Part shown: positions 38,724 to 49,209 of the stretch, one piece after another
How the letters are laid out: each line of letters starts with the position of its first letter
Numbering within the stretch: position 1 is the stretch's first letter
Assembly: GCA_028714495.1 (NCBI GenBank)
Contig: JAQTMH010000003.1
Coordinates: 8,496-72,495 of the forward strand
DNA from: Patescibacteria group bacterium
Lineage (GTDB): Bacteria > Patescibacteriota > Patescibacteriia > JAHIZJ01
Reading direction: 5' to 3'
Length of the DNA stretch: 64,000 nt
Program-made: the position numbers and the translations under genes
Notes under the pieces: model-generated
Seen by the model: the letters and a program-made list of their open reading frames with translations, nothing else
Told to the model about the DNA's origin: nothing
Databases searched by the model: none

Positions 38724-39317
38724 TTATTTTAATGTTTTGCTTATTATATCCCAATTAAAATATTGATATGGTGATTTATGATATTTGCTTGGCAATGATC
38801 CTTTTATGGGATTACGTTTGATGTAATTTAACACCGCTTTAAAATACTCATCATTATTGATAATCCGGGTATAAAAACGGCGCTGCCAAATCGTATATGG
38901 AATATCGTGTTTTTTACGCAATTCGTTGATAAAATAGGATTTGATGCCGTGTAATAAATCGGTAATATTATATCCGCCATCCTCCCTTTCCCCGTTCCGA
39001 ACGCGGGCCGCCGTGCCCGCGTTTGTTGTTTTATGTCTAACATTTTTTATTTGTCGCGCAACCACTGCGGTCATGTATGTACGTCCACGCGCAACCACTG
39101 CGGGTTGCGCTCGGGTGTTCTTCATTACCAATAAATGTATATGATCTGGCATAATTTGATACGATATGACATCAAAACACTTAATATTGCATGTCTTAAA
39201 TATTACCCTGCTTAATAAACGCGTATATTTTATATCCTCAAAAAACGGCAATCCTTCGTTTGTCCGAAACGTTACGAAATACGGATATTCATCTTGATAG
39301 ATTCTTCTTTGAGTCAT
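38724..39317 (-). CDS. IS200/IS605-family HUH tyrosine transposase-like protein (RAYT-like), possibly degenerate
   Basis: HUH motif MPDHIHLLV. The C-terminal IWQRRFYTRII resembles the RAYT WQRRFHDH motif, but the HDH is lost. An in-frame low-complexity insertion is encoded by a duplicated CGCGCAACCACTGCGG hairpin repeat (39046..39120). Confidence 0.6.
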   Translation of the reverse strand: MTQRRIYQDEYPYFVTFRTNEGLPFFEDIKYTRLLSRVIFKTCNIKCFDVISYQIMPDHIHLLVMKNTRAQPAVVARGRTYMTAVVARQIKNVRHKTTNAGTAARVRNGEREDGGYNITDLLHGIKSYFINELRKKHDIPYTIWQRRFYTRIINNDEYFKAVLNYIKRNPIKGSLPSKYHKSPYQYFNWDIISKTLK

Positions 39318-40929: not shown

Positions 40930-41128
40930 GTGTTTCGATATTAGTTATTAATTAGCCAACAAACATGTTGATGGCCTTGGCGTTATTTCTAACGTCAATT
41001 ATATCATAAGCCAATTCAAAAAATCTGTAAACTTAATTCTTTCTAATCAAAAAAGCCGCCTGGGGGAGGGGCGAAAACTGTCTTCGACCGAGTACGGCAC
41101 AAGCTGCTGTAATTAAAGTACGGATATT

Positions 41129-43357
41129 TTACAAACTATTGTATAAATCAAGCCAATCGCCAAGATCGCCAGGTTCAAATTTTTTACTTGACTCATCAAA
41201 ATATACCCATCTTCCAGTATAATTTCTTTGATCGGTGTTTGTTACTATACCACCAAAAATCTTTTTTCCTTTTTTCTTTTCACAATATATATATTTATAA
41301 AACCCATCAATTTTTGGACCAGCCATTTGTTTTGTAAAACCTGACTTTGTGTCAAATAACCCAATTCTGCCATCCTTCAATTTTACTATAAAATCCACAT
41401 AAAAAGGTTTTTGTTCACCATTCTTGTATGGAATAGCAAAAAATATGGAATCACGATCTCCATTTTTAAACCACCATTCTATCTTATTTGAACCATTTAT
41501 ATATTCAATAAAGGCTTTTTCCGTCCTCCATTCATTCTTACTATAAAAAGGCTGCATTATTGATTTCTTTCTTTCTTCTTGTGCATAATCCTCATTAAAC
41601 CGCATAGACTTAGGTATATTCCATTTTTCTTGAACAATTAATTCACTATCCCTTTTTTCTACCTCTTTTTGGTATTCATCTTTAGTCTTACTTAAAACAT
41701 TGAGAAAATGCTTACTATTTTTTTCACTTAATACTATTTGAACAATTTCATCCCATTTTTCGGCATATTTCATTTTAAGTTCATTTTCAAAAAACTTGTA
41801 TATTGATTCTTTAACTCTACCCACTGACCGATCTTCTGGATAGAAAGGAGCCAAATTTTTTCTAACGAAGTAATCAATTAATTTCTGTAAATCAAAGCCA
41901 CTGGCTTTTATTTCCTTATTCCCCGAAATTTTCACTTTTGCCAAAATATCAATGTCTTCTGCCCGCCAGTTAGTCACTATTTTTTGATCAATTTTTTTTG
42001 ACTTGATATCTACTTTACTTTTTAAACCATACACTTTCGCAAATTTCAAAAATAACTCGATAAAAAACGGAGATAATCTAGTTTTTTCTCTATGACGCCT
42101 AGAATAATAGGATTTTAAATTAATTGGTTTATAGCTTTTTATTCTCTTACTAATATAAATTGTGATGTAATTCCTCGCGATATCTTCTTGAATTTCAATA
42201 TTATCTAAATTCGTGTAAACATAGCCGTAATTTAAAATCTCATTTGGATAGTGACCAAAATCTGGCTCGGGCATACGCATTATTCTGCCGACTGTTTGAA
42301 TAGAAAAAATTGGGCTGTGCCATTCTCTAAATAAAACCAAAATCTGCGCCCTGGGGCAGTCCCAGCCCAAAGCTATTGCCTGTTTAAAAATTAAGACTTC
42401 AACTTTACTATCATTCTTTTCAACATATTCCTTATTAACATGTTCGCCAGAAAGCCAGATAGCGAGTTTGCTATTATCCTTTTCTGTCGTAATTTTATAT
42501 TTATTTTTCAAAATACTTTCCACTCTTTCCCTTATTCTATCTTCTAAGCTTGATTTTCTGTCGGGTAATTGTATTAAAATTAATGGATTAACATTAACTC
42601 CTTCTTTTTTGAAGGCTTTTACAATTTCAATTCTTTTTTGAATAGCCGCGCCTATAACTAACTCTTCGCTGCCACCACTTAGATTTTGCGTCTTTATTTT
42701 TCCTTGCTTTATAATATTGTCAAAATTATCGTTCAGAATGACCGCCTTTTTGATCATACCATCTTTTTTTACATCTTCTAGTAATACATCAACTTGGAGA
42801 TCGCCACTTAGAACTGGCGTGGCCGAGACCTCAATCGTTAATTTAGGATTAATCATCTCAATTAAACCTTGTGAAATTTCGCTGGTGGCGTGGTGGTGGG
42901 CTTCATCAATGACCAAGATTATTTCTCTGCCTTCTTCCCTTGTATTTTCAATAACTTTTGATAAATTGAAATCTTGTTCATTGTCGCGAATATATATATT
43001 GTCTTTTTTATTAATGCTTTCCCAATTGAAAAACAAAATTTCGTTCTGATCAATTCTTATATCGTCTAAATCATCAAAATATGAACACTTTATAGCACGG
43101 CTTTTTTCAAAATAATTTTCCAGCTTCTCTTTACTTTGGATATGAAGTTGCCGGGGAGCGGTCCAAATAAAGCCGAATAATTGTTTGATTTCTCTATCAT
43201 CTGCCAATTGCTTTAAAAACTCGGCCATCATTATTGTCTTGCCAGAACCCGTGGGCGCTTTAAAAACTAATTTTTTACTACCAGAGTACTCCAAAAGTCT
43301 TTTAGTTTTGTTCATTAAATCGTCTATTGCATTTTCCTGGTATATTTTTAGTTGCAT
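41129..43357 (-). CDS. res: Type III restriction enzyme Res subunit (SF2 helicase-like)
   Basis: Walker A KAPTGSGKT and the DEAH box VIDEAHH. Very low GC. Confidence 0.8.
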   Translation of the reverse strand: MQLKIYQENAIDDLMNKTKRLLEYSGSKKLVFKAPTGSGKTIMMAEFLKQLADDREIKQLFGFIWTAPRQLHIQSKEKLENYFEKSRAIKCSYFDDLDDIRIDQNEILFFNWESINKKDNIYIRDNEQDFNLSKVIENTREEGREIILVIDEAHHHATSEISQGLIEMINPKLTIEVSATPVLSGDLQVDVLLEDVKKDGMIKKAVILNDNFDNIIKQGKIKTQNLSGGSEELVIGAAIQKRIEIVKAFKKEGVNVNPLILIQLPDRKSSLEDRIRERVESILKNKYKITTEKDNSKLAIWLSGEHVNKEYVEKNDSKVEVLIFKQAIALGWDCPRAQILVLFREWHSPIFSIQTVGRIMRMPEPDFGHYPNEILNYGYVYTNLDNIEIQEDIARNYITIYISKRIKSYKPINLKSYYSRRHREKTRLSPFFIELFLKFAKVYGLKSKVDIKSKKIDQKIVTNWRAEDIDILAKVKISGNKEIKASGFDLQKLIDYFVRKNLAPFYPEDRSVGRVKESIYKFFENELKMKYAEKWDEIVQIVLSEKNSKHFLNVLSKTKDEYQKEVEKRDSELIVQEKWNIPKSMRFNEDYAQEERKKSIMQPFYSKNEWRTEKAFIEYINGSNKIEWWFKNGDRDSIFFAIPYKNGEQKPFYVDFIVKLKDGRIGLFDTKSGFTKQMAGPKIDGFYKYIYCEKKKGKKIFGGIVTNTDQRNYTGRWVYFDESSKKFEPGDLGDWLDLYNSL

Positions 43358-43361
43358 AATT

Positions 43362-44213
43362 TTATAATAACGCTTTTCCTAATCTTATTTTTGATAAACA
43401 ATTAATTAGTGTTTTAAATGTCATATAATAATTAGCTGCTATTTTAAGATAATTTGTATAAAAATCGCTAAATTGTTCGTCGCTAATGTCTTTATCTAAA
43501 AATTCTAAATCTCTATAATTTGATTTTATTCTATAGCAGTAAAAAAATTCAAAAAGATTAACTGTACTATATTCTAAAAATTCTTTTTTTTCAAGTCTAT
43601 TTTTTTTAGATCTATAATCTCTTATTTTCCTTTTTCTTTGAAAATCTTCAAGTTTATAACTAATAAGCTTTTTAAGTAATTGTGTAATTCTTTCGCCTAA
43701 ATTTATACCAATTACTTTTAGATTAGCGCCTGATTTAGCCTTATAATTCATAATTTTTAAACACTGAAAATTTGAGTTGAACATCTTTTTATTAAAAATT
43801 ATTTCTTTCCTTTCGATGTGACCCTTTAAACTTTTTATCAAGCCCTCGTGCGAACAATTAAATGAAGATTCTTGACCAGAAATAAGATATTCTAATATCA
43901 AAAATAAATTAAACATTAAATAATATATTTTTACGGCTATCCATGGTACACAAACCTCGGCAAAACCAATATTTGTTTTAATATTCTCCGATTCAAGTTG
44001 AAGGTTCTTTATTATCAATTTTATTAGATTGATCTTTTTTTTAAGAATTTTCCCTTCGTATATTTTTTTCTTAAAATCTAATTTACATTCAGCACTTAAA
44101 CCTTCGGAAATAGTGTTAAAACAGATAACATAATTCAAGTGCGTCATAAAATCCGGAGGGTGTTCTTTTTTATACTCTTCGTTTTCTTTTTCTATCCACT
44201 TACTTAAATCCAT
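43362..44213 (-). CDS. hypothetical protein encoded between mod and res (283 aa, K/N/I/L-rich)
   Basis: Overlaps both the mod stop and the res start by a few bp, which suggests translational coupling. About 25% GC. No family recognised. Confidence 0.55.
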   Translation of the reverse strand: MDLSKWIEKENEEYKKEHPPDFMTHLNYVICFNTISEGLSAECKLDFKKKIYEGKILKKKINLIKLIIKNLQLESENIKTNIGFAEVCVPWIAVKIYYLMFNLFLILEYLISGQESSFNCSHEGLIKSLKGHIERKEIIFNKKMFNSNFQCLKIMNYKAKSGANLKVIGINLGERITQLLKKLISYKLEDFQRKRKIRDYRSKKNRLEKKEFLEYSTVNLFEFFYCYRIKSNYRDLEFLDKDISDEQFSDFYTNYLKIAANYYMTFKTLINCLSKIRLGKALL

Positions 44214-44217
44214 TTCT

Positions 44218-45903
44218 TTATTTAAAAATTCTTCTATAAACTCTCAAAATTGCCTCAGGTATCGGAGATAATCTTACTTTTTGTTTTATATCTTCAAATT
44301 CTTCGTCAAATGTTTCATCGCCTAACGAAAATATGTAGACACTAAATTTACCTTTAAAATTCTTTATTACCTTCTTAAAGACGGAAATTGCCAATGGATC
44401 ATAAATTATACCAGTATAGTGATCAGTATTTTTGAAAATTTTATAATTGTTCTGGGCCAATACGGGTTTGAAAGTACCCTCTTTTACACAAAGCATCTCG
44501 GTCGCCTCGGCGGTAAGTTTAATTTTATTTTTATCTGTGGGTTCGCCATCAACAAAATCAGTTTTGAAATATTTTAGTATACCACCCAAACCTTTTATTT
44601 TTTCGCCTTTCAAATTTTCATAACCCATAATAACTTTCTTGACTCGTGGATAACAAATGTTTGTGGCTATGTCATTTTCATTGTTTGTACATAAAATAAA
44701 CTGGCGATTACCATTATCTTCTTTATTTAGTTCTAAAACCGCTTGACTAGTCGTACCTGTTCCAGCCATAAAATCCAAAATTACAGAATTTTTTTCAGTC
44801 GATAAATTCAACAAATATTTGATTAAAAGATAAGGTTTTGGATAACTAAATACTTTACCATGGAACATTTTTTCTAATTCCTTCGTAGCCATAGTGCTTG
44901 AGTATTGTGAGATTACTGCAAATGGAGGCCGTTGTCTCTCAATAGGATTATTCTCATTATCTACATTTAAATATTGCTTTGAATATACTACCCAATTACC
45001 TGATTTATTCTTATCAATTTTTATAAAGCCGTTTGCAAGACCCCACTTAACCTTTTCTTTGGACCACCTCCAACAAGCTTTTTTATGTTTGAAACTAGGC
45101 CAAATTTCTTTTCTATCGGGTGCAATAATTGGGTAGTCTAGTGATTTTGAGTACTGAATACTAGCACTATTTAGTTTAATCAATTTATGTTTTCCTCTTT
45201 CTTTTTCATATTTATCTGTATAGGTATAGGCATCTTCATCTGGAATTTTTTCTTTATTTATTAAAAATTTGGGCTTATTTTTTGCATACACCAAAACGTA
45301 TTCATGTTTAATTTTGAAGTGCTTACTATCCGAACTACCTCCACCCTCGCGATTTTCCCATACTAAAATGGCAACAAAATTATCTTCACCAAACAACCCA
45401 ATATTTTTATCATCCATTAAAAGTTTTAATTGCGCCACTTCATTATCATCTATAGAAATAAAAATTGCTCCGGTATCTTTTAATAAATATTTTGCTAATT
45501 TTAAACGTTTTTCCATAAACGCAAGCCATTTAGAATGGCGGTAGGCATCTTCTCTATCAACATAGAGGTCATTAAAAATAAAATCTTTACTACCTGTGTT
45601 ATAGGGAGGATCAATATATATGACATCAATTTTTTTGCTATGAGTATAATTCAAAACTGAAAGCGCATGATAATTATCGCCTTCAATCAATAGATTAACC
45701 GGCTTGGTTTTGTCCGTTTCAATTTCTTTGTTTTTAACTTCTTTCAATATCGGCAATTTTTCTTTACACAATTCTACCACGTCCTCCAGCTTCTCTTCCC
45801 AAACCAAACCATATTTTTTACTTTTCTTTAATTCTTTCTTCAATCGTGCCACTTCGGCAAGAAGCTTTGCTTTGGATAAATTTTTATTATCATTTGTTTC
45901 CAT
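44218..45903 (-). CDS. mod: Type III RM Mod subunit (beta-class N6-adenine/N4-cytosine DNA methyltransferase)
   Basis: DPPY motif IV (VIYIDPPYNTG) precedes motif I (FMAGTGTT). This motif order defines the beta class typical of Type III Mod. Confidence 0.85.
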   Translation of the reverse strand: METNDNKNLSKAKLLAEVARLKKELKKSKKYGLVWEEKLEDVVELCKEKLPILKEVKNKEIETDKTKPVNLLIEGDNYHALSVLNYTHSKKIDVIYIDPPYNTGSKDFIFNDLYVDREDAYRHSKWLAFMEKRLKLAKYLLKDTGAIFISIDDNEVAQLKLLMDDKNIGLFGEDNFVAILVWENREGGGSSDSKHFKIKHEYVLVYAKNKPKFLINKEKIPDEDAYTYTDKYEKERGKHKLIKLNSASIQYSKSLDYPIIAPDRKEIWPSFKHKKACWRWSKEKVKWGLANGFIKIDKNKSGNWVVYSKQYLNVDNENNPIERQRPPFAVISQYSSTMATKELEKMFHGKVFSYPKPYLLIKYLLNLSTEKNSVILDFMAGTGTTSQAVLELNKEDNGNRQFILCTNNENDIATNICYPRVKKVIMGYENLKGEKIKGLGGILKYFKTDFVDGEPTDKNKIKLTAEATEMLCVKEGTFKPVLAQNNYKIFKNTDHYTGIIYDPLAISVFKKVIKNFKGKFSVYIFSLGDETFDEEFEDIKQKVRLSPIPEAILRVYRRIFK

Positions 45904-46087
45904 ATTTTCTAGGATTTCATTAAATCATCAATACCAACACCAAGCGCTAAGATGATTTTTCCCCTTTTTCATACCCCCATCATACCCCCAAACCAAGCCA
46001 AAATCAAGGGCAAAAGAAAAAAGGCCCCTCTTGATTTAGAGCGGCCTGTTGAAAAGGCTTTACGGGAATGATGTCCTGGGAACCATT

Positions 46088-46729
46088 TCACTGGCAGTCC
46101 CAACTCCAGATATCAGGATCAAACACACCGGTAATGCTGAGGCTGTCAATCATCCCAAGCGTATCAACATACGCCACGATATACACGTCGTCAAAGACGT
46201 TGTTGTACGTCGGATGGGTAATCATCTTCCAGAAAATAGTGCTGTCGCAGATGGCGCCATAGTCGGGGTAAGCAGCCTTGAATTTCGCAATCGGATCGCC
46301 CATGCGCAATCCGCTCTGCTTGACCTTGCCTGGGTAGTTCCTGGAGAAATGAAACCCTAACAATCGGTTAAACGCCCAGTAGAGATGTATGCCGCACTCT
46401 TCGCTCGCGAATTCCAGGGTATTGCCATACCCCCCGGTCCGGCCGTCCACGTAGTGGAATCCGCAATGCCCTTTGAGCGAGTGATTGTCTGGTTGGTCGT
46501 AGGAAAATCCGCCGAGACTGATATCGCTGGTAGAAAAGCTGACATCGCCGTCGCACACGTCCTTGCACGGCTCTTCTGGCTTGAAAATACTGCAGCTGAC
46601 AAGACATGCGGCAAAGATGCAGACAGCGAAAGCCATCATGCGCCGCCAGTGTCGAGAGTACATACCCACCTCCTCTTTGTGCGGGTAGTTATTGCCGATA
46701 AAATGAACAGCTCCCCATCTTACCCCCAT
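46088..46729 (-). CDS. lipoprotein, hypothetical (GC-rich)
   Basis: The probable start is MYSRHWRRMMAFAVCIFAACLVSCS (lipobox LVSC). About 55% GC. Confidence 0.45.
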   Translation of the reverse strand: MGVRWGAVHFIGNNYPHKEEVGMYSRHWRRMMAFAVCIFAACLVSCSIFKPEEPCKDVCDGDVSFSTSDISLGGFSYDQPDNHSLKGHCGFHYVDGRTGGYGNTLEFASEECGIHLYWAFNRLLGFHFSRNYPGKVKQSGLRMGDPIAKFKAAYPDYGAICDSTIFWKMITHPTYNNVFDDVYIVAYVDTLGMIDSLSITGVFDPDIWSWDCQ

Positions 46730-46780
46730 TTTATGCTAAAAGCAAGAAAAACCGCCATTCCTGGCGGCCCCTGTAATTAT

Positions 46781-47326
46781 TTACTCAAATATTTCATGTA
46801 TTAATTTTTCGTTGATATAAAGGTAGGGATAATATTCGCCTTCCTTCACCAAACCATGCTTGATGGGATTGAGACGGAGATATTCGACGTGGCGGTTAAA
46901 GTCTTTATCATTAAGAATGATGTGATCATGATAAGATTTTAGCCAACCAAATTTGCGAATATATATTTTGTGGGTGATCACAAATCTTCGTAGGCGAACA
47001 AGCGCTTGTTCGCCTACGGTTGTTGCTATCCTCGAGTTCACGCCGATTAAACGATTCACTTCGTGAGAAAATTGTTTTTTTATAGTAAACATTATTTTGG
47101 ATATGTTGTATTTACCACTTGGTTGTATGAGTATGTGAACGTGGTCAGGTATAACGACGAAGCCAAACAACCGGAAACGCATACTTTGTTCAGCAATACT
47201 TAACCGATTTATAAACAACCCGGTTAGTATTTCATTCCGAAAATACGGATAGTTATCTTTGGTTTTTGTGGTCACAAAATATATCGCATTTTCAATATAT
47301 ATTCGTTTCTGGCTGTTTTTGTACAT
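46781..47326 (-). CDS. IS200/IS605-family HUH tyrosine transposase-like protein (RAYT-like)
   Basis: HUH motif IPDHVHILI and a RAYT-like SYHDHII C-terminal motif. An in-frame insertion is encoded by a perfect 28-bp palindrome GTAGGCGAACAAGCGCTTGTTCGCCTAC (46988..47015). Confidence 0.65.
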   Translation of the reverse strand: MYKNSQKRIYIENAIYFVTTKTKDNYPYFRNEILTGLFINRLSIAEQSMRFRLFGFVVIPDHVHILIQPSGKYNISKIMFTIKKQFSHEVNRLIGVNSRIATTVGEQALVRLRRFVITHKIYIRKFGWLKSYHDHIILNDKDFNRHVEYLRLNPIKHGLVKEGEYYPYLYINEKLIHEIFE

Positions 47327-47369: not shown

Positions 47370-48404
47370 CTAATTTTCTTCCGCCGGCTTTTCCAATTCA
47401 ATGGTTTCAGCCTGACCGCCCTTGCCGGATATTTTCAAAACGTCTTTGTCGATTTTCTTGAATTCTTTAGCTGCCGTGTTATAAGTGTTCACGGTAGTGC
47501 CTATCTGATTCCCTAATCGGGTAAAATAGCCCTCATAGCTCATCAGATGCCTGGCTAATTGCTCGACATTTTTTCTAATTTCTTTGGCTGATTCCTCAAT
47601 GCGCAATGCCCTCAAACCCTGAAGCACAGTCTGGAGATAGGCGAAAAACGAAGTCGGTGATACGATAATCACGTGCTTGTCTTTAAAGGCGTATTCGATC
47701 AGATCGCGGGTGTTCAGCTTTACGGTGCCGACCTGATTGACCAGCAGATCGTAGTAGATGGCTTCGGCTGGAATGAACATAAAGGCGAAGTCCATGGTAT
47801 TTTCGCCCGGCCGGATGTATTTGGCTGTTTCATCGATCCGGTTTTTCAAATCCTGCTTAAAGACTTTTTCCAGCCTGGCGCGTTCAGCCGGATCGCGTTC
47901 AACAGAAATGCGGTTGTAATTCTCCAGGGAGAATTTGGAATCGATTGGAATTATCTTTTCGCCCACGAAAATTACCGCGTCAGCCATGTCTCCGTTTTTG
48001 AAGCCGTACTGCAACTTATAATTGCTCGGCGGCAAGACGTTTTTTAACACGGTTTCGAGAAAATACTCGCCCAAGACCCCGCGCTGTTTCGGATTTTGAA
48101 GGATGTCCTGGAGATTCTGCAATTGGTCGGCAAAACCCACGACCTGGCGGTTGGTTTCATCGAGCTTGGTCAGTTTTTCAGTCACGTCTTGGATTACCTT
48201 CATGCTGCCGATCAGCTGATTCTGCATATCTTGGCGCACGCCCTGGATATTTTGGTTCAGCAGAGCAAAGGGCTCGCTTTTCGAATCCTTTTCCAGCTGG
48301 CGCATTTGCTGAAAATGCCGGAACTGCCAGATTATCACCATTATTACAACTCCAAAACCGACTATTATTATTCCGGCAATTATTATTGTCCAGGTTTGAG
48401 ACAT
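47370..48404 (-). CDS. rmuC: DNA recombination protein RmuC
   Basis: N-terminal TM anchor, a coiled coil, and a C-terminal RmuC nuclease-like domain. Confidence 0.8.
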   Translation of the reverse strand: MSQTWTIIIAGIIIVGFGVVIMVIIWQFRHFQQMRQLEKDSKSEPFALLNQNIQGVRQDMQNQLIGSMKVIQDVTEKLTKLDETNRQVVGFADQLQNLQDILQNPKQRGVLGEYFLETVLKNVLPPSNYKLQYGFKNGDMADAVIFVGEKIIPIDSKFSLENYNRISVERDPAERARLEKVFKQDLKNRIDETAKYIRPGENTMDFAFMFIPAEAIYYDLLVNQVGTVKLNTRDLIEYAFKDKHVIIVSPTSFFAYLQTVLQGLRALRIEESAKEIRKNVEQLARHLMSYEGYFTRLGNQIGTTVNTYNTAAKEFKKIDKDVLKISGKGGQAETIELEKPAEEN

Positions 48405-48411
48405 ATGGTGA

Positions 48412-49209
48412 TTATCTATTATCTAATCGAAAGAGTCGTTTGGCGTTATTAGTCGTTGCTTCAACCACCTCTTCAAAAGCGAGGTTTTTTATCTGGGCAA
48501 TCTTTTCAGCCACGTATCGGACATAGAGCGGCTCATTGCGCTGTCCGCGATACGGCACTGGCGCCAGGTAAGGAGAGTCAGTTTCGATTAACACCTTGTC
48601 CAGCGGTATTTCCTTGATCACGCCGATTAAATCCTGATCTTTTGTAAAAGTGATAATTCCGGTGAAACCAAGGTAAAACCCGAGCTTGAGAAACTTCTGG
48701 GCTATTTCTCGATTGCCCAAAAAGCAATGAACCACTCCGGCTGGCAACTCGCCTTTTTCAATCTGATCAATCAAATCAGTGTAAGCGTCGCGGCAATGCA
48801 TGATAATCGGCAAGCCATGTTCTTTGGCCAGATTTATTTGCGACTGAAGAATCTCTTTCTGGTGATTTTTTATCGCATCGATCTCTTCCTGGGATTCAGC
48901 CTCCAAGTGATAATAATCCAGCCCGATTTCACCTATGGCCTTGATTGAAGATGGATGTTCTTTGATCAGATGCCTGAAATCCTCAAGTTCAAATTTCATC
49001 TTGGCCGAGTGAATCGGATGGAAACCCACTGCCGCGAAAAGCTGTCCCGGATGCTGCTCGGCCAACTCAACGGCTAATTGACTGGTATCAAGCTGCGAAC
49101 CGGGATTTATAACGCTTAAATCCTGATCCAGGCAGCGCTGGATGACCTCGTTCCGGTCTTTTTGAAACGCCTTATAATTCAAATGGGCGTGACTGTCAAT
49201 CATCTTCAC
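48412..49209 (-). CDS. tatD: TatD-family metal-dependent DNase
   Basis: MIDSHAHL N-terminus with the His/Glu/Asp metal ligands of TIM-barrel hydrolases. Confidence 0.9.
   Translation of the reverse strand: MKMIDSHAHLNYKAFQKDRNEVIQRCLDQDLSVINPGSQLDTSQLAVELAEQHPGQLFAAVGFHPIHSAKMKFELEDFRHLIKEHPSSIKAIGEIGLDYYHLEAESQEEIDAIKNHQKEILQSQINLAKEHGLPIIMHCRDAYTDLIDQIEKGELPAGVVHCFLGNREIAQKFLKLGFYLGFTGIITFTKDQDLIGVIKEIPLDKVLIETDSPYLAPVPYRGQRNEPLYVRYVAEKIAQIKNLAFEEVVEATTNNAKRLFRLDNR

Follow-up and report, generated by a model that had tools for sequence, protein, structure and literature searches.

A putative defence gene of an unannotated family in an interchangeable slot between mod and res of a Type III-like restriction-modification operon

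The window analysed here, a stretch of 64,000 nucleotides from a contig of a Patescibacteria group bacterium (JAQTMH010000003.1, positions 8,496 to 72,495), contains a Type III-like restriction-modification (R-M) operon in which an additional gene, designated here as X, is inserted between mod and res. A scan for open reading frames (ORFs) returned exactly the three genes that had been described for positions 41129-45903 in the original prediction, made from the nucleotide letters and their ORFs, and all three are co-directional on the minus strand (Table 1). Mod matches N6_N4_Mtase in Pfam (PF01555, 1.9e-36) and MTase_III in PADLOC (1.9e-95), and its translation has DPPY upstream of DFMAGTGTT (F-x-G-x-G), i.e., the order of the beta class. 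Res possesses a Walker A motif (PTGSGKT) and a DEAH motif (DEAHH) and matches ResIII in Pfam (PF04851, 1.9e-23) and, partially, REase_III in PADLOC (3.3e-16). The GC content of the five 1-kb segments covering 41001-46000 is 0.27-0.33, compared with 0.505 and 0.474 in the adjacent segments, and the mod-X-res region is a horizontally acquired, low-GC Type III-like R-M operon. The gene sizes, the beta-class Mod, the helicase motifs of Res and the foreign-looking, low-GC island had all been predicted correctly. The start and stop codons, however, do not overlap at the two junctions, as had been claimed, but are separated by 4 nt in both cases. As the spacing is this short on either side of X, translational coupling is plausible; we consider it probable, as is the co-transcription of X with the R-M genes.

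The Type III label of this operon rests on its genes and domains, hence the designation "Type III-like". The beta-class Mod is accompanied by a Res with superfamily 2 (SF2) helicase/ATPase motifs and with a C-terminal PD-(D/E)xK endonuclease domain, as is typical for Type III systems; E613, D655 and D669-T-K671 are the candidate catalytic residues of this domain. Res belongs to a very large family, with 7,726 homologues at E<=1e-10 that typically have a length of ~740 aa. A Type III system consists of the two genes mod and res, and the 283-aa gene between them sets the operon of the window apart. Nevertheless, the core system is evidently a two-gene one and X an insertion into it, because mod and res are only 2-9 nt apart in 8 of 60 close relatives (see below).

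X is a real gene and the founding member of an unannotated, stand-alone family of ~280-aa proteins. Its homologues fall into 91 clusters when grouped at 90% identity, with E values as low as 1e-115; they all have ~270-290 aa and lack a Pfam domain. An exhaustive profile search retrieved 225 representatives at 50% identity. A "hypothetical protein" of a Patescibacteria metagenome-assembled genome (MAG) has the same sequence as the protein of the window (100% identity), and further members are found in Patescibacteria, Pace-, Woese- and Aenigmarchaeota, Brocadiia, Clostridia and several proteobacterial MAGs. No meaningful match to X was found in Pfam, NCBIfam, PADLOC or PHROGs; against PADLOC-DB v2.0.0, which includes the PDC models, there was no match at E<=1. 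When 59 aligned family members were scanned at E<=10, scattered noise was obtained and no HEPN model was matched. Sequence searches of the PDB with the single protein and with the family profile returned nothing, and no relatives of X were detected in IMG/VR, among the PLSDB plasmids or among GenBank phages. (The corresponding plasmid search with Res gave only distant relatives of <=38% identity and is uninformative.) A split or frameshifted part of mod or res was ruled out as the origin of X, because X shows similarity to neither Mod nor Res, and these two are full length. The view that Mod and Res are complete and that the ORF between them is no split-off piece of either is thus upheld, as X forms an independent family that occurs in other contexts as well.

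Table 1. Features of the mod-X-res operon and of its surroundings (coordinates of the window)
Feature	Coordinates	Strand	Remarks
mod	44218..45903	-	ORF scan, 561 aa; beta-class N6-adenine-type DNA methyltransferase, Type III-like Mod
mod/X junction spacer	44214..44217	-	AGAA, 4 nt, between mod TAA and X ATG (TAA-AGAA-ATG)
X	43362..44213	-	ORF scan, 283 aa; cargo gene of an unannotated all-alpha family with a predicted HEPN-like core
X, N-terminal motif T24-H25-x-x-Y28	44130..44144	-	Conserved upstream histidine
X, motif R228-I-K-S-N232-Y233 (Rx4Y)	43515..43532	-	Most conserved element of the family
X/res junction spacer	43358..43361	-	AATT, 4 nt, between X TAA and res ATG (TAA-AATT-ATG)
res	41129..43357	-	ORF scan, 742 aa; SF2 helicase-nuclease, Type III-like Res
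Res, C-terminal domain	41132..41680	-	Residues 560-742, PD-(D/E)xK nuclease fold
Res, candidate catalytic residues	within 41345-41521	-	Codons of E613, D655, D669-T-K671
Promoter-like site TTGATT-17-TATGAT	45979..46007	-	~75 nt upstream of mod ATG; consensus scan, 9/12 matches
Four-copy motif, first tandem pair	45969-46013		Just upstream of mod
Four-copy motif, second tandem pair	46707-46751		Just upstream of the neighbouring 213-aa gene
IS200-like Y1 transposase-family gene	38724-39317	-	PF01797, 6.7e-10
IS200-like Y1 transposase-family gene	46781-47326	-	PF01797, 1.5e-08
RmuC gene	47370-48404	-	PF02646, 1.9e-51
TatD DNase gene	48412-49209	-	PF01026, 5.5e-79

The mod/res junction and the genomic contexts of X

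Three close relatives of Res picked at random were all found to have other genes between mod and res, namely DUF3800 preceded by two genes of 114 and 50 aa, an OLD-like ABC-TOPRIM protein, and DUF3644. We fetched 80 metagenomic loci whose Res is 69-77% identical to that of the window and measured the distance from the mod stop to the res start wherever both were present on the contig, which was the case for 60 loci. In eight of these the slot is empty (2-9 nt) and in two it is ambiguous. The most frequent occupants are OLD/AriA/GajA-like proteins (16 loci; AriA 6e-34, Old 8e-33), followed by DUF3800-containing cargo (6), a Ppl-like protein of ~900 aa (5; 1.3e-27), X itself (5, one copy being split), an unannotated ~370-aa family, c5 (4), DUF3644, which corresponds to PDC-S19 (3; 1.8e-133), and an unannotated ~305-aa family, c6 (2). 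Ymh (PD-Lambda-3_B, 5.6e-39), a cyclase of a cyclic-oligonucleotide-based anti-phage signalling system (CBASS), a tetratricopeptide repeat protein, a metallo-beta-lactamase-fold protein and several unknowns were encountered as single instances. Note that the cargo of loci L050, L056, L057 and L095 was assigned by identical gap length or by the same contig rather than by direct annotation. Altogether, ~50 of the 60 loci carry cargo, and ~20 alternative, mostly defence-type genes can be found in the slot.

Whatever the cargo, the nucleotide sequence is conserved over the final 45 nt of mod and the initial 45 nt of res. Furthermore, the ATG of every cargo type lies 2-7 nt past the mod stop, and res starts 2-5 nt past the cargo stop, i.e., the spacing appears to stay compatible with coupled translation. 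The mod/res junction acts as a precise cargo slot, and X is one of its interchangeable occupants and not a subunit of the restriction enzyme. Cassettes would be replaced by homologous recombination within the conserved coding ends that flank the slot, the 3' end of mod and the 5' end of res.

The CBASS-type cyclase mentioned above (PADLOC Cyclase, 1.1e-114) is followed by a 199-aa gene, so that in this case (L101, 2338-3810) a whole two-gene defence system is accommodated in the slot. Several other occupants have no significant match in Pfam or PADLOC: c5 (L073, 2996-4141; also L084 and L094), c6 (L049, 3189-4106; also L072), and the genes at L065 724-1608 and L104 2780-3925. These are candidates for further unannotated defence genes, and since several cargo families (c5, c6, c14, c22) are unannotated, the slot offers a cheap route to more of them.

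X is not restricted to the operon of the window. The order Mod-X-Res recurs in a 1-Mb contig of the Candidate Phyla Radiation (CPR) (L001), in a gammaproteobacterial MAG (L010) and in a Pacearchaeota MAG (L018), whose junctions are overlapping ATGA; together with the window and with L045, L093 and L112, these are the Type III-like loci that contain X. In Type I loci, X was found in the arrangements HsdM-DUF3800-HsdS-X-264aa-OLD-HsdR (L026), HsdM-...-HsdS-X-Mrr_cat (L025), HsdM...HsdS-152-219-X-HsdR (L022) and HsdM-HsdS-X (L031), and it adjoins Type IIG MmeI/Eco57I-like enzymes in L008, L012 and L033. Elsewhere it lies within a GmrSD/HEPN/integrase island (L007), beside an AbiEii-like ATPase and a methyltransferase (L015), or alone, next to ftsZ (L004). 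In total, 13 of the 34 independent X loci lie within or beside an R-M operon or what remains of one, so that the possibility, raised with the original prediction, of homologues never occurring beside R-M genes does not apply; seven further loci have a beta-class methyltransferase within 8 kb. The commonest neighbour of X is indeed a beta-class methyltransferase (11 locus groups). In an all-vs-all clustering of the neighbours, only methyltransferases and R-M genes were recurrent, and no second gene was consistently linked to X. X is thus an autonomous, mobile family that behaves as embedded cargo does: it is nested in multi-gene defence operons, it recurs, and it uses more than one host system. 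It matches no existing HEC, PDC or other known defence model.

Some copies are in decay or appear to be displaced. In a Parcubacteria MAG (L013, 4741-5724), the 3' end of mod persists as a 43-aa remnant (84% identity to residues 519-561 of the Mod of the window) directly upstream of a frameshifted X, with an HsdM-like gene further upstream; it seems that a copy of the cargo was either relocated or stayed behind, together with part of its flanking sequence. X is split into ORFs of 156 and 96 aa inside an otherwise intact Mod/Res pair in L118 (1974-2819), and only fragments of X and Res are left in an Aenigmarchaeota contig (L039, 7935-10912).

Fold, conserved residues and proposed role of X

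An AlphaFold2 model of X, built with the family alignment (predicted local distance difference test, 92.4; predicted template modelling score, 0.88), is all-alpha, with helices at residues 3-17, 20-36, 55-80, 82-112, 172-194, 203-215, 220-232 and 245-277 and a mixed insert at 113-171. Its best structural match is AF0298 (2hsb); the HEPN toxin SO_3166 (5yep) scores 8.0, 7ae2 and 8xdj 7.8, and YutE (1ylm) 7.7, and AbiA, Roquin, sacsin, Csx1, HepS, RnlA, LsoA, Csm6 and Las1 are among the lower matches. According to this model, the core of X would be an HEPN-like bundle of four helices, to which further N-terminal helices and an insert of ~60 aa are added. A PD-(D/E)xK nuclease in X, for which a check had been recommended, was rejected, the model being all-alpha and the domain being located in the C-terminus of Res. 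A membrane protein was rejected as well: the hydrophobic helix 87-111 bears charged residues in divergent members.

Conservation was counted over 38 divergent family members, down to ~23% identity. H25, Y28, W91, Y97, R228 and Y233 are invariant, and T24, K95, Y98, H122, Y225 and N232 are conserved in >=90% of the members. The hallmark of the family is F-F-Y-x-Y-R228-I-K-x-N-Y233-R-D, with Rx4Y in place of the Rx4-6H of HEPN RNases; there is no histidine at +5 to +7 from R228. The motif histidine is gone and the arginine kept in the HEPN domains of AF0298 and AbiV as well, and a conserved upstream histidine of these domains may make an alternative active site (PMC3710099, section 6). The putative active site of X, composed of R228, N232 and Y233 and of the upstream H25 and/or H122, resembles this type.

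Among the roles listed in the original prediction, an abortive-infection or other defence module riding in the operon is the best fit. Since a PD-(D/E)xK domain is already present in Res, X is most likely a defence cargo that acts autonomously as a second line, and on balance we favour, with moderate confidence, the reading that this cargo is HEPN-like and resides in a swappable slot. X would then be an abortive-infection-type effector acting on its own, probably an RNase or an RNA-binding toxin, that would be expressed together with the R-M genes and come into action once restriction has been evaded or disabled by a phage, comparable to PrrC as the backup of EcoprrI. Such cargo would be exchanged through recombination, as described above. 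A specific contact to Mod or Res is probably not needed, because X occurs with three R-M types and alone. For X by itself, a role in defence is suggested by its genomic context, by the logic of PrrC/EcoprrI and by the protective effect of HEC-08 (see below); an RNase activity in particular can be proposed only tentatively. More speculative, and rather doubtful as a whole, is the idea that X may found a class of HEPN-derived enzymes in which the catalytic histidine is replaced by an invariant tyrosine (Rx4Y), aided by the T-H-x-x-Y helix, and which would serve ultra-small CPR bacteria and DPANN archaea as self-contained abortive-infection effectors, with the mod/res junction behaving much like an integron, as a cassette slot with coupled translation in which at least 20 defence genes would be shuffled through recombination at the 3' end of mod and the 5' end of res.

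Several observations weigh against the HEPN-like defence cargo. In 14 of the 34 independent X loci, the available flank revealed neither an R-M gene nor a methyltransferase gene, and there was no conserved antitoxin-like partner among the neighbour clusters. A Foldseek search of the model against the PDB gave nothing at E<1, and no sequence profile ties X to any HEPN family. The family alignment was compared by hhalign with DUF3644, RiboL-PSP-HEPN and the Ymh cargo, in no case with a significant result. For DUF3644 (P=0.3), the sole local match pairs FEFFYCYRIKSNYRDLEFLD with LDFFIELRNKIEHRFLPQLD and sets R228 on the HEPN arginine and Y233 on the HEPN histidine (LRNKIEH, Rx4H). The placement of R228 and Y233 at the Rx4-6H position, for which this non-significant match and the helix order are the basis, is thus a hint. 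Finally, X could be non-catalytic, because the defining HEPN catalytic histidine is missing.

This last point leads to the strongest rival, to which we assign a minor, though appreciable, chance: X may be an HEPN-like or other helical protein without nuclease activity, such as a sensor, a regulator, an RNA- or nucleotide-binding factor or an antitoxin-like modulator, and accompany genes for R-M and for methyltransferases. The tyrosine in the motif and the missing toxin-antitoxin partner are in line with this, and motif-less HEPN domains can be non-catalytic binding domains (PMC3710099). However, twelve invariant or near-invariant polar and aromatic residues persist to ~25% identity in an active-site-like pattern, and other occupants of the slot (OLD, Ppl, DUF3644, Ymh, CBASS) are effectors. 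It is less probable still that X is a novel enzyme whose helical bundle is only superficially HEPN-like, i.e., a defence-linked cargo with unrelated chemistry. The empty Foldseek result and the lack of profile similarity to any family would agree with such an enzyme, whereas the combination of Rx4[Y] with a conserved upstream histidine parallels the AF0298/AbiV variant of HEPN.

X could also be an integral third subunit of the Type III enzyme, acting in specificity, assembly or regulation; a specificity or regulation factor had been among the examples given in the original prediction, which also suggested a search for three-gene Type III-like architectures. The tight 4-nt spacing to both neighbours and the Mod-X-Res order shared by bacteria and the Pacearchaeota MAG could be taken in its favour. 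Nevertheless, this is very improbable: close relatives of Res have an empty slot (8 loci) or unrelated genes in it (~45 loci), X also occurs by itself and in loci of Type I and Type IIG systems, and the Res family, with its 7,726 matches, is far larger than that of X with 91 clusters. Hardly any credence can be given to X as a factor for mobility or recombination by which cassettes are brought into the slot, or as a frameshifted mod/res fragment: the precise insertion position of the cargo and a conserved R/H/K/W/Y set that loosely recalls the catalytic residues of tyrosine recombinases could point to a recombinase, but other cargo types fill the slot without X, the alignment shows an independent family lacking any similarity to the full-length Mod and Res, and X occurs far from any Mod or Res gene.

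X adds an unannotated cross-domain family (CPR, DPANN and others) to the candidate anti-phage repertoire, and the CPR and DPANN lineages are poorly covered by the defence-system catalogues built on RefSeq. If the Rx4Y site is catalytic, it would represent a new variation on HEPN chemistry.

Surroundings of the operon

The promoter-like site upstream of mod is a weak annotation, because such sites are not enriched over shuffles here; promoter- and terminator-like sites in the region occur at chance level compared with shuffled sequence. A short motif is present four times, as two tandem pairs (Table 1), and reads TCATACCCCCATCATACCCCCA on the plus strand and GGGGGTATGATGGGGGTATGA on the minus strand. 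It includes TATGAT boxes and may be a promoter element of the organism. No convincing direct or inverted repeats were found to bound the island. Two IS200-like Y1 transposase-family genes flank the region, ~1.8 kb and ~0.9 kb beyond the edges of the R-M island, and a similar Y1_Tnp gene is present near the solo copy of X in L004. These may be RAYT-like housekeeping genes or may have to do with the mobility of the island. Just past the upstream one of the two lie the genes for RmuC and TatD, which have a normal GC content and appear to belong to the ordinary gene set of the host.

In the related operons whose upstream genes were listed, a RadC-like gene (PF04002) is located upstream of mod (L001 5291-5962, L040 1302-1988, L041 175-858, L043 1-626), often with NYN or DUF4357 genes between the two. 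RadC is missing in the window, as the low-GC island stops right after mod.

Comparison with known systems

With the canonical Type III systems (mod-res of EcoP15I), the operon shares the order of a beta-class Mod before Res, as well as the SF2 helicase motifs and the C-terminal PD-(D/E)xK domain of Res, and two-gene versions exist within its own subfamily. It differs in the size of Res (~740 aa here vs ~970 aa) and in that most members of the subfamily carry cargo between mod and res.

HEPN families in R-M operons, including DUF3644, have been described (PMC3710099). The closest parallel in gene arrangement is PrrC/EcoprrI, a Type Ic hsd operon in which an HEPN-type gene is nested between the R-M genes, is co-transcribed with them and encodes a proposed second-line effector backing up restriction (PMC3710099). 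However, PrrC, like RloC, combines an N-terminal ABC ATPase with a C-terminal HEPN domain with the canonical Rx4-6H, whereas X consists of a single domain (~280 aa) that has Rx4Y but neither a P-loop nor an ATPase. Furthermore, X is not bound to one R-M type.

DUF3644/EC042_2821 (PDC-S19 in PADLOC) occupies the same mod/res slot next to a Res that is ~73% identical to that of the window (L043, L061, L098). It is, as X, an embedded single-gene cargo with an HEPN core, which in X is a predicted one. HEC-08, to which DUF3644 is related, is experimentally protective, and its phage defence depends on the histidine of Rx4-6H (Payne et al., bioRxiv 10.1101/2024.01.29.577857); note that this protection is a feature of the DUF3644 relative. 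DUF3644 has the canonical LRNKIEH (Rx4H), whereas X has neither this motif nor a Zn-ribbon tail and is not represented by a model in PADLOC-DB v2.0.0.

In the AF0298-type HEPN domains and AbiV, the likeness to X lies in the absence of the motif histidine and in conserved upstream histidines (H25 and H122 in X), and AF0298 is the best structural match. Those domains, however, comprise ~120-130 aa, whereas X, with 283 aa, has two extra N-terminal helices and the ~60-aa insert; the 2hsb families pair with minimal nucleotidyltransferases, and X has no such partner. There is no detectable sequence relationship between X and these proteins.

"Guilt by embedding" has been shown for Hma, BREX, DISARM and Type I R-M in a survey of RefSeq genomes that included Type I but not Type III R-M (bioRxiv 10.1101/2024.01.29.577857). 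As in those systems, unrelated defence genes nest here in a multi-gene defence operon, and OLD-like, HEPN and other effectors recur among the cargo. In contrast to them, the host operon is Type III-like, the cargo enters at a single junction of 2-9 nt, and the carriers are mostly CPR and DPANN MAGs. As the nesting of defence genes in defence operons is already established, the polymorphic slot described here is a modest extension of it, by which guilt by embedding comes to include a Type III-like family.

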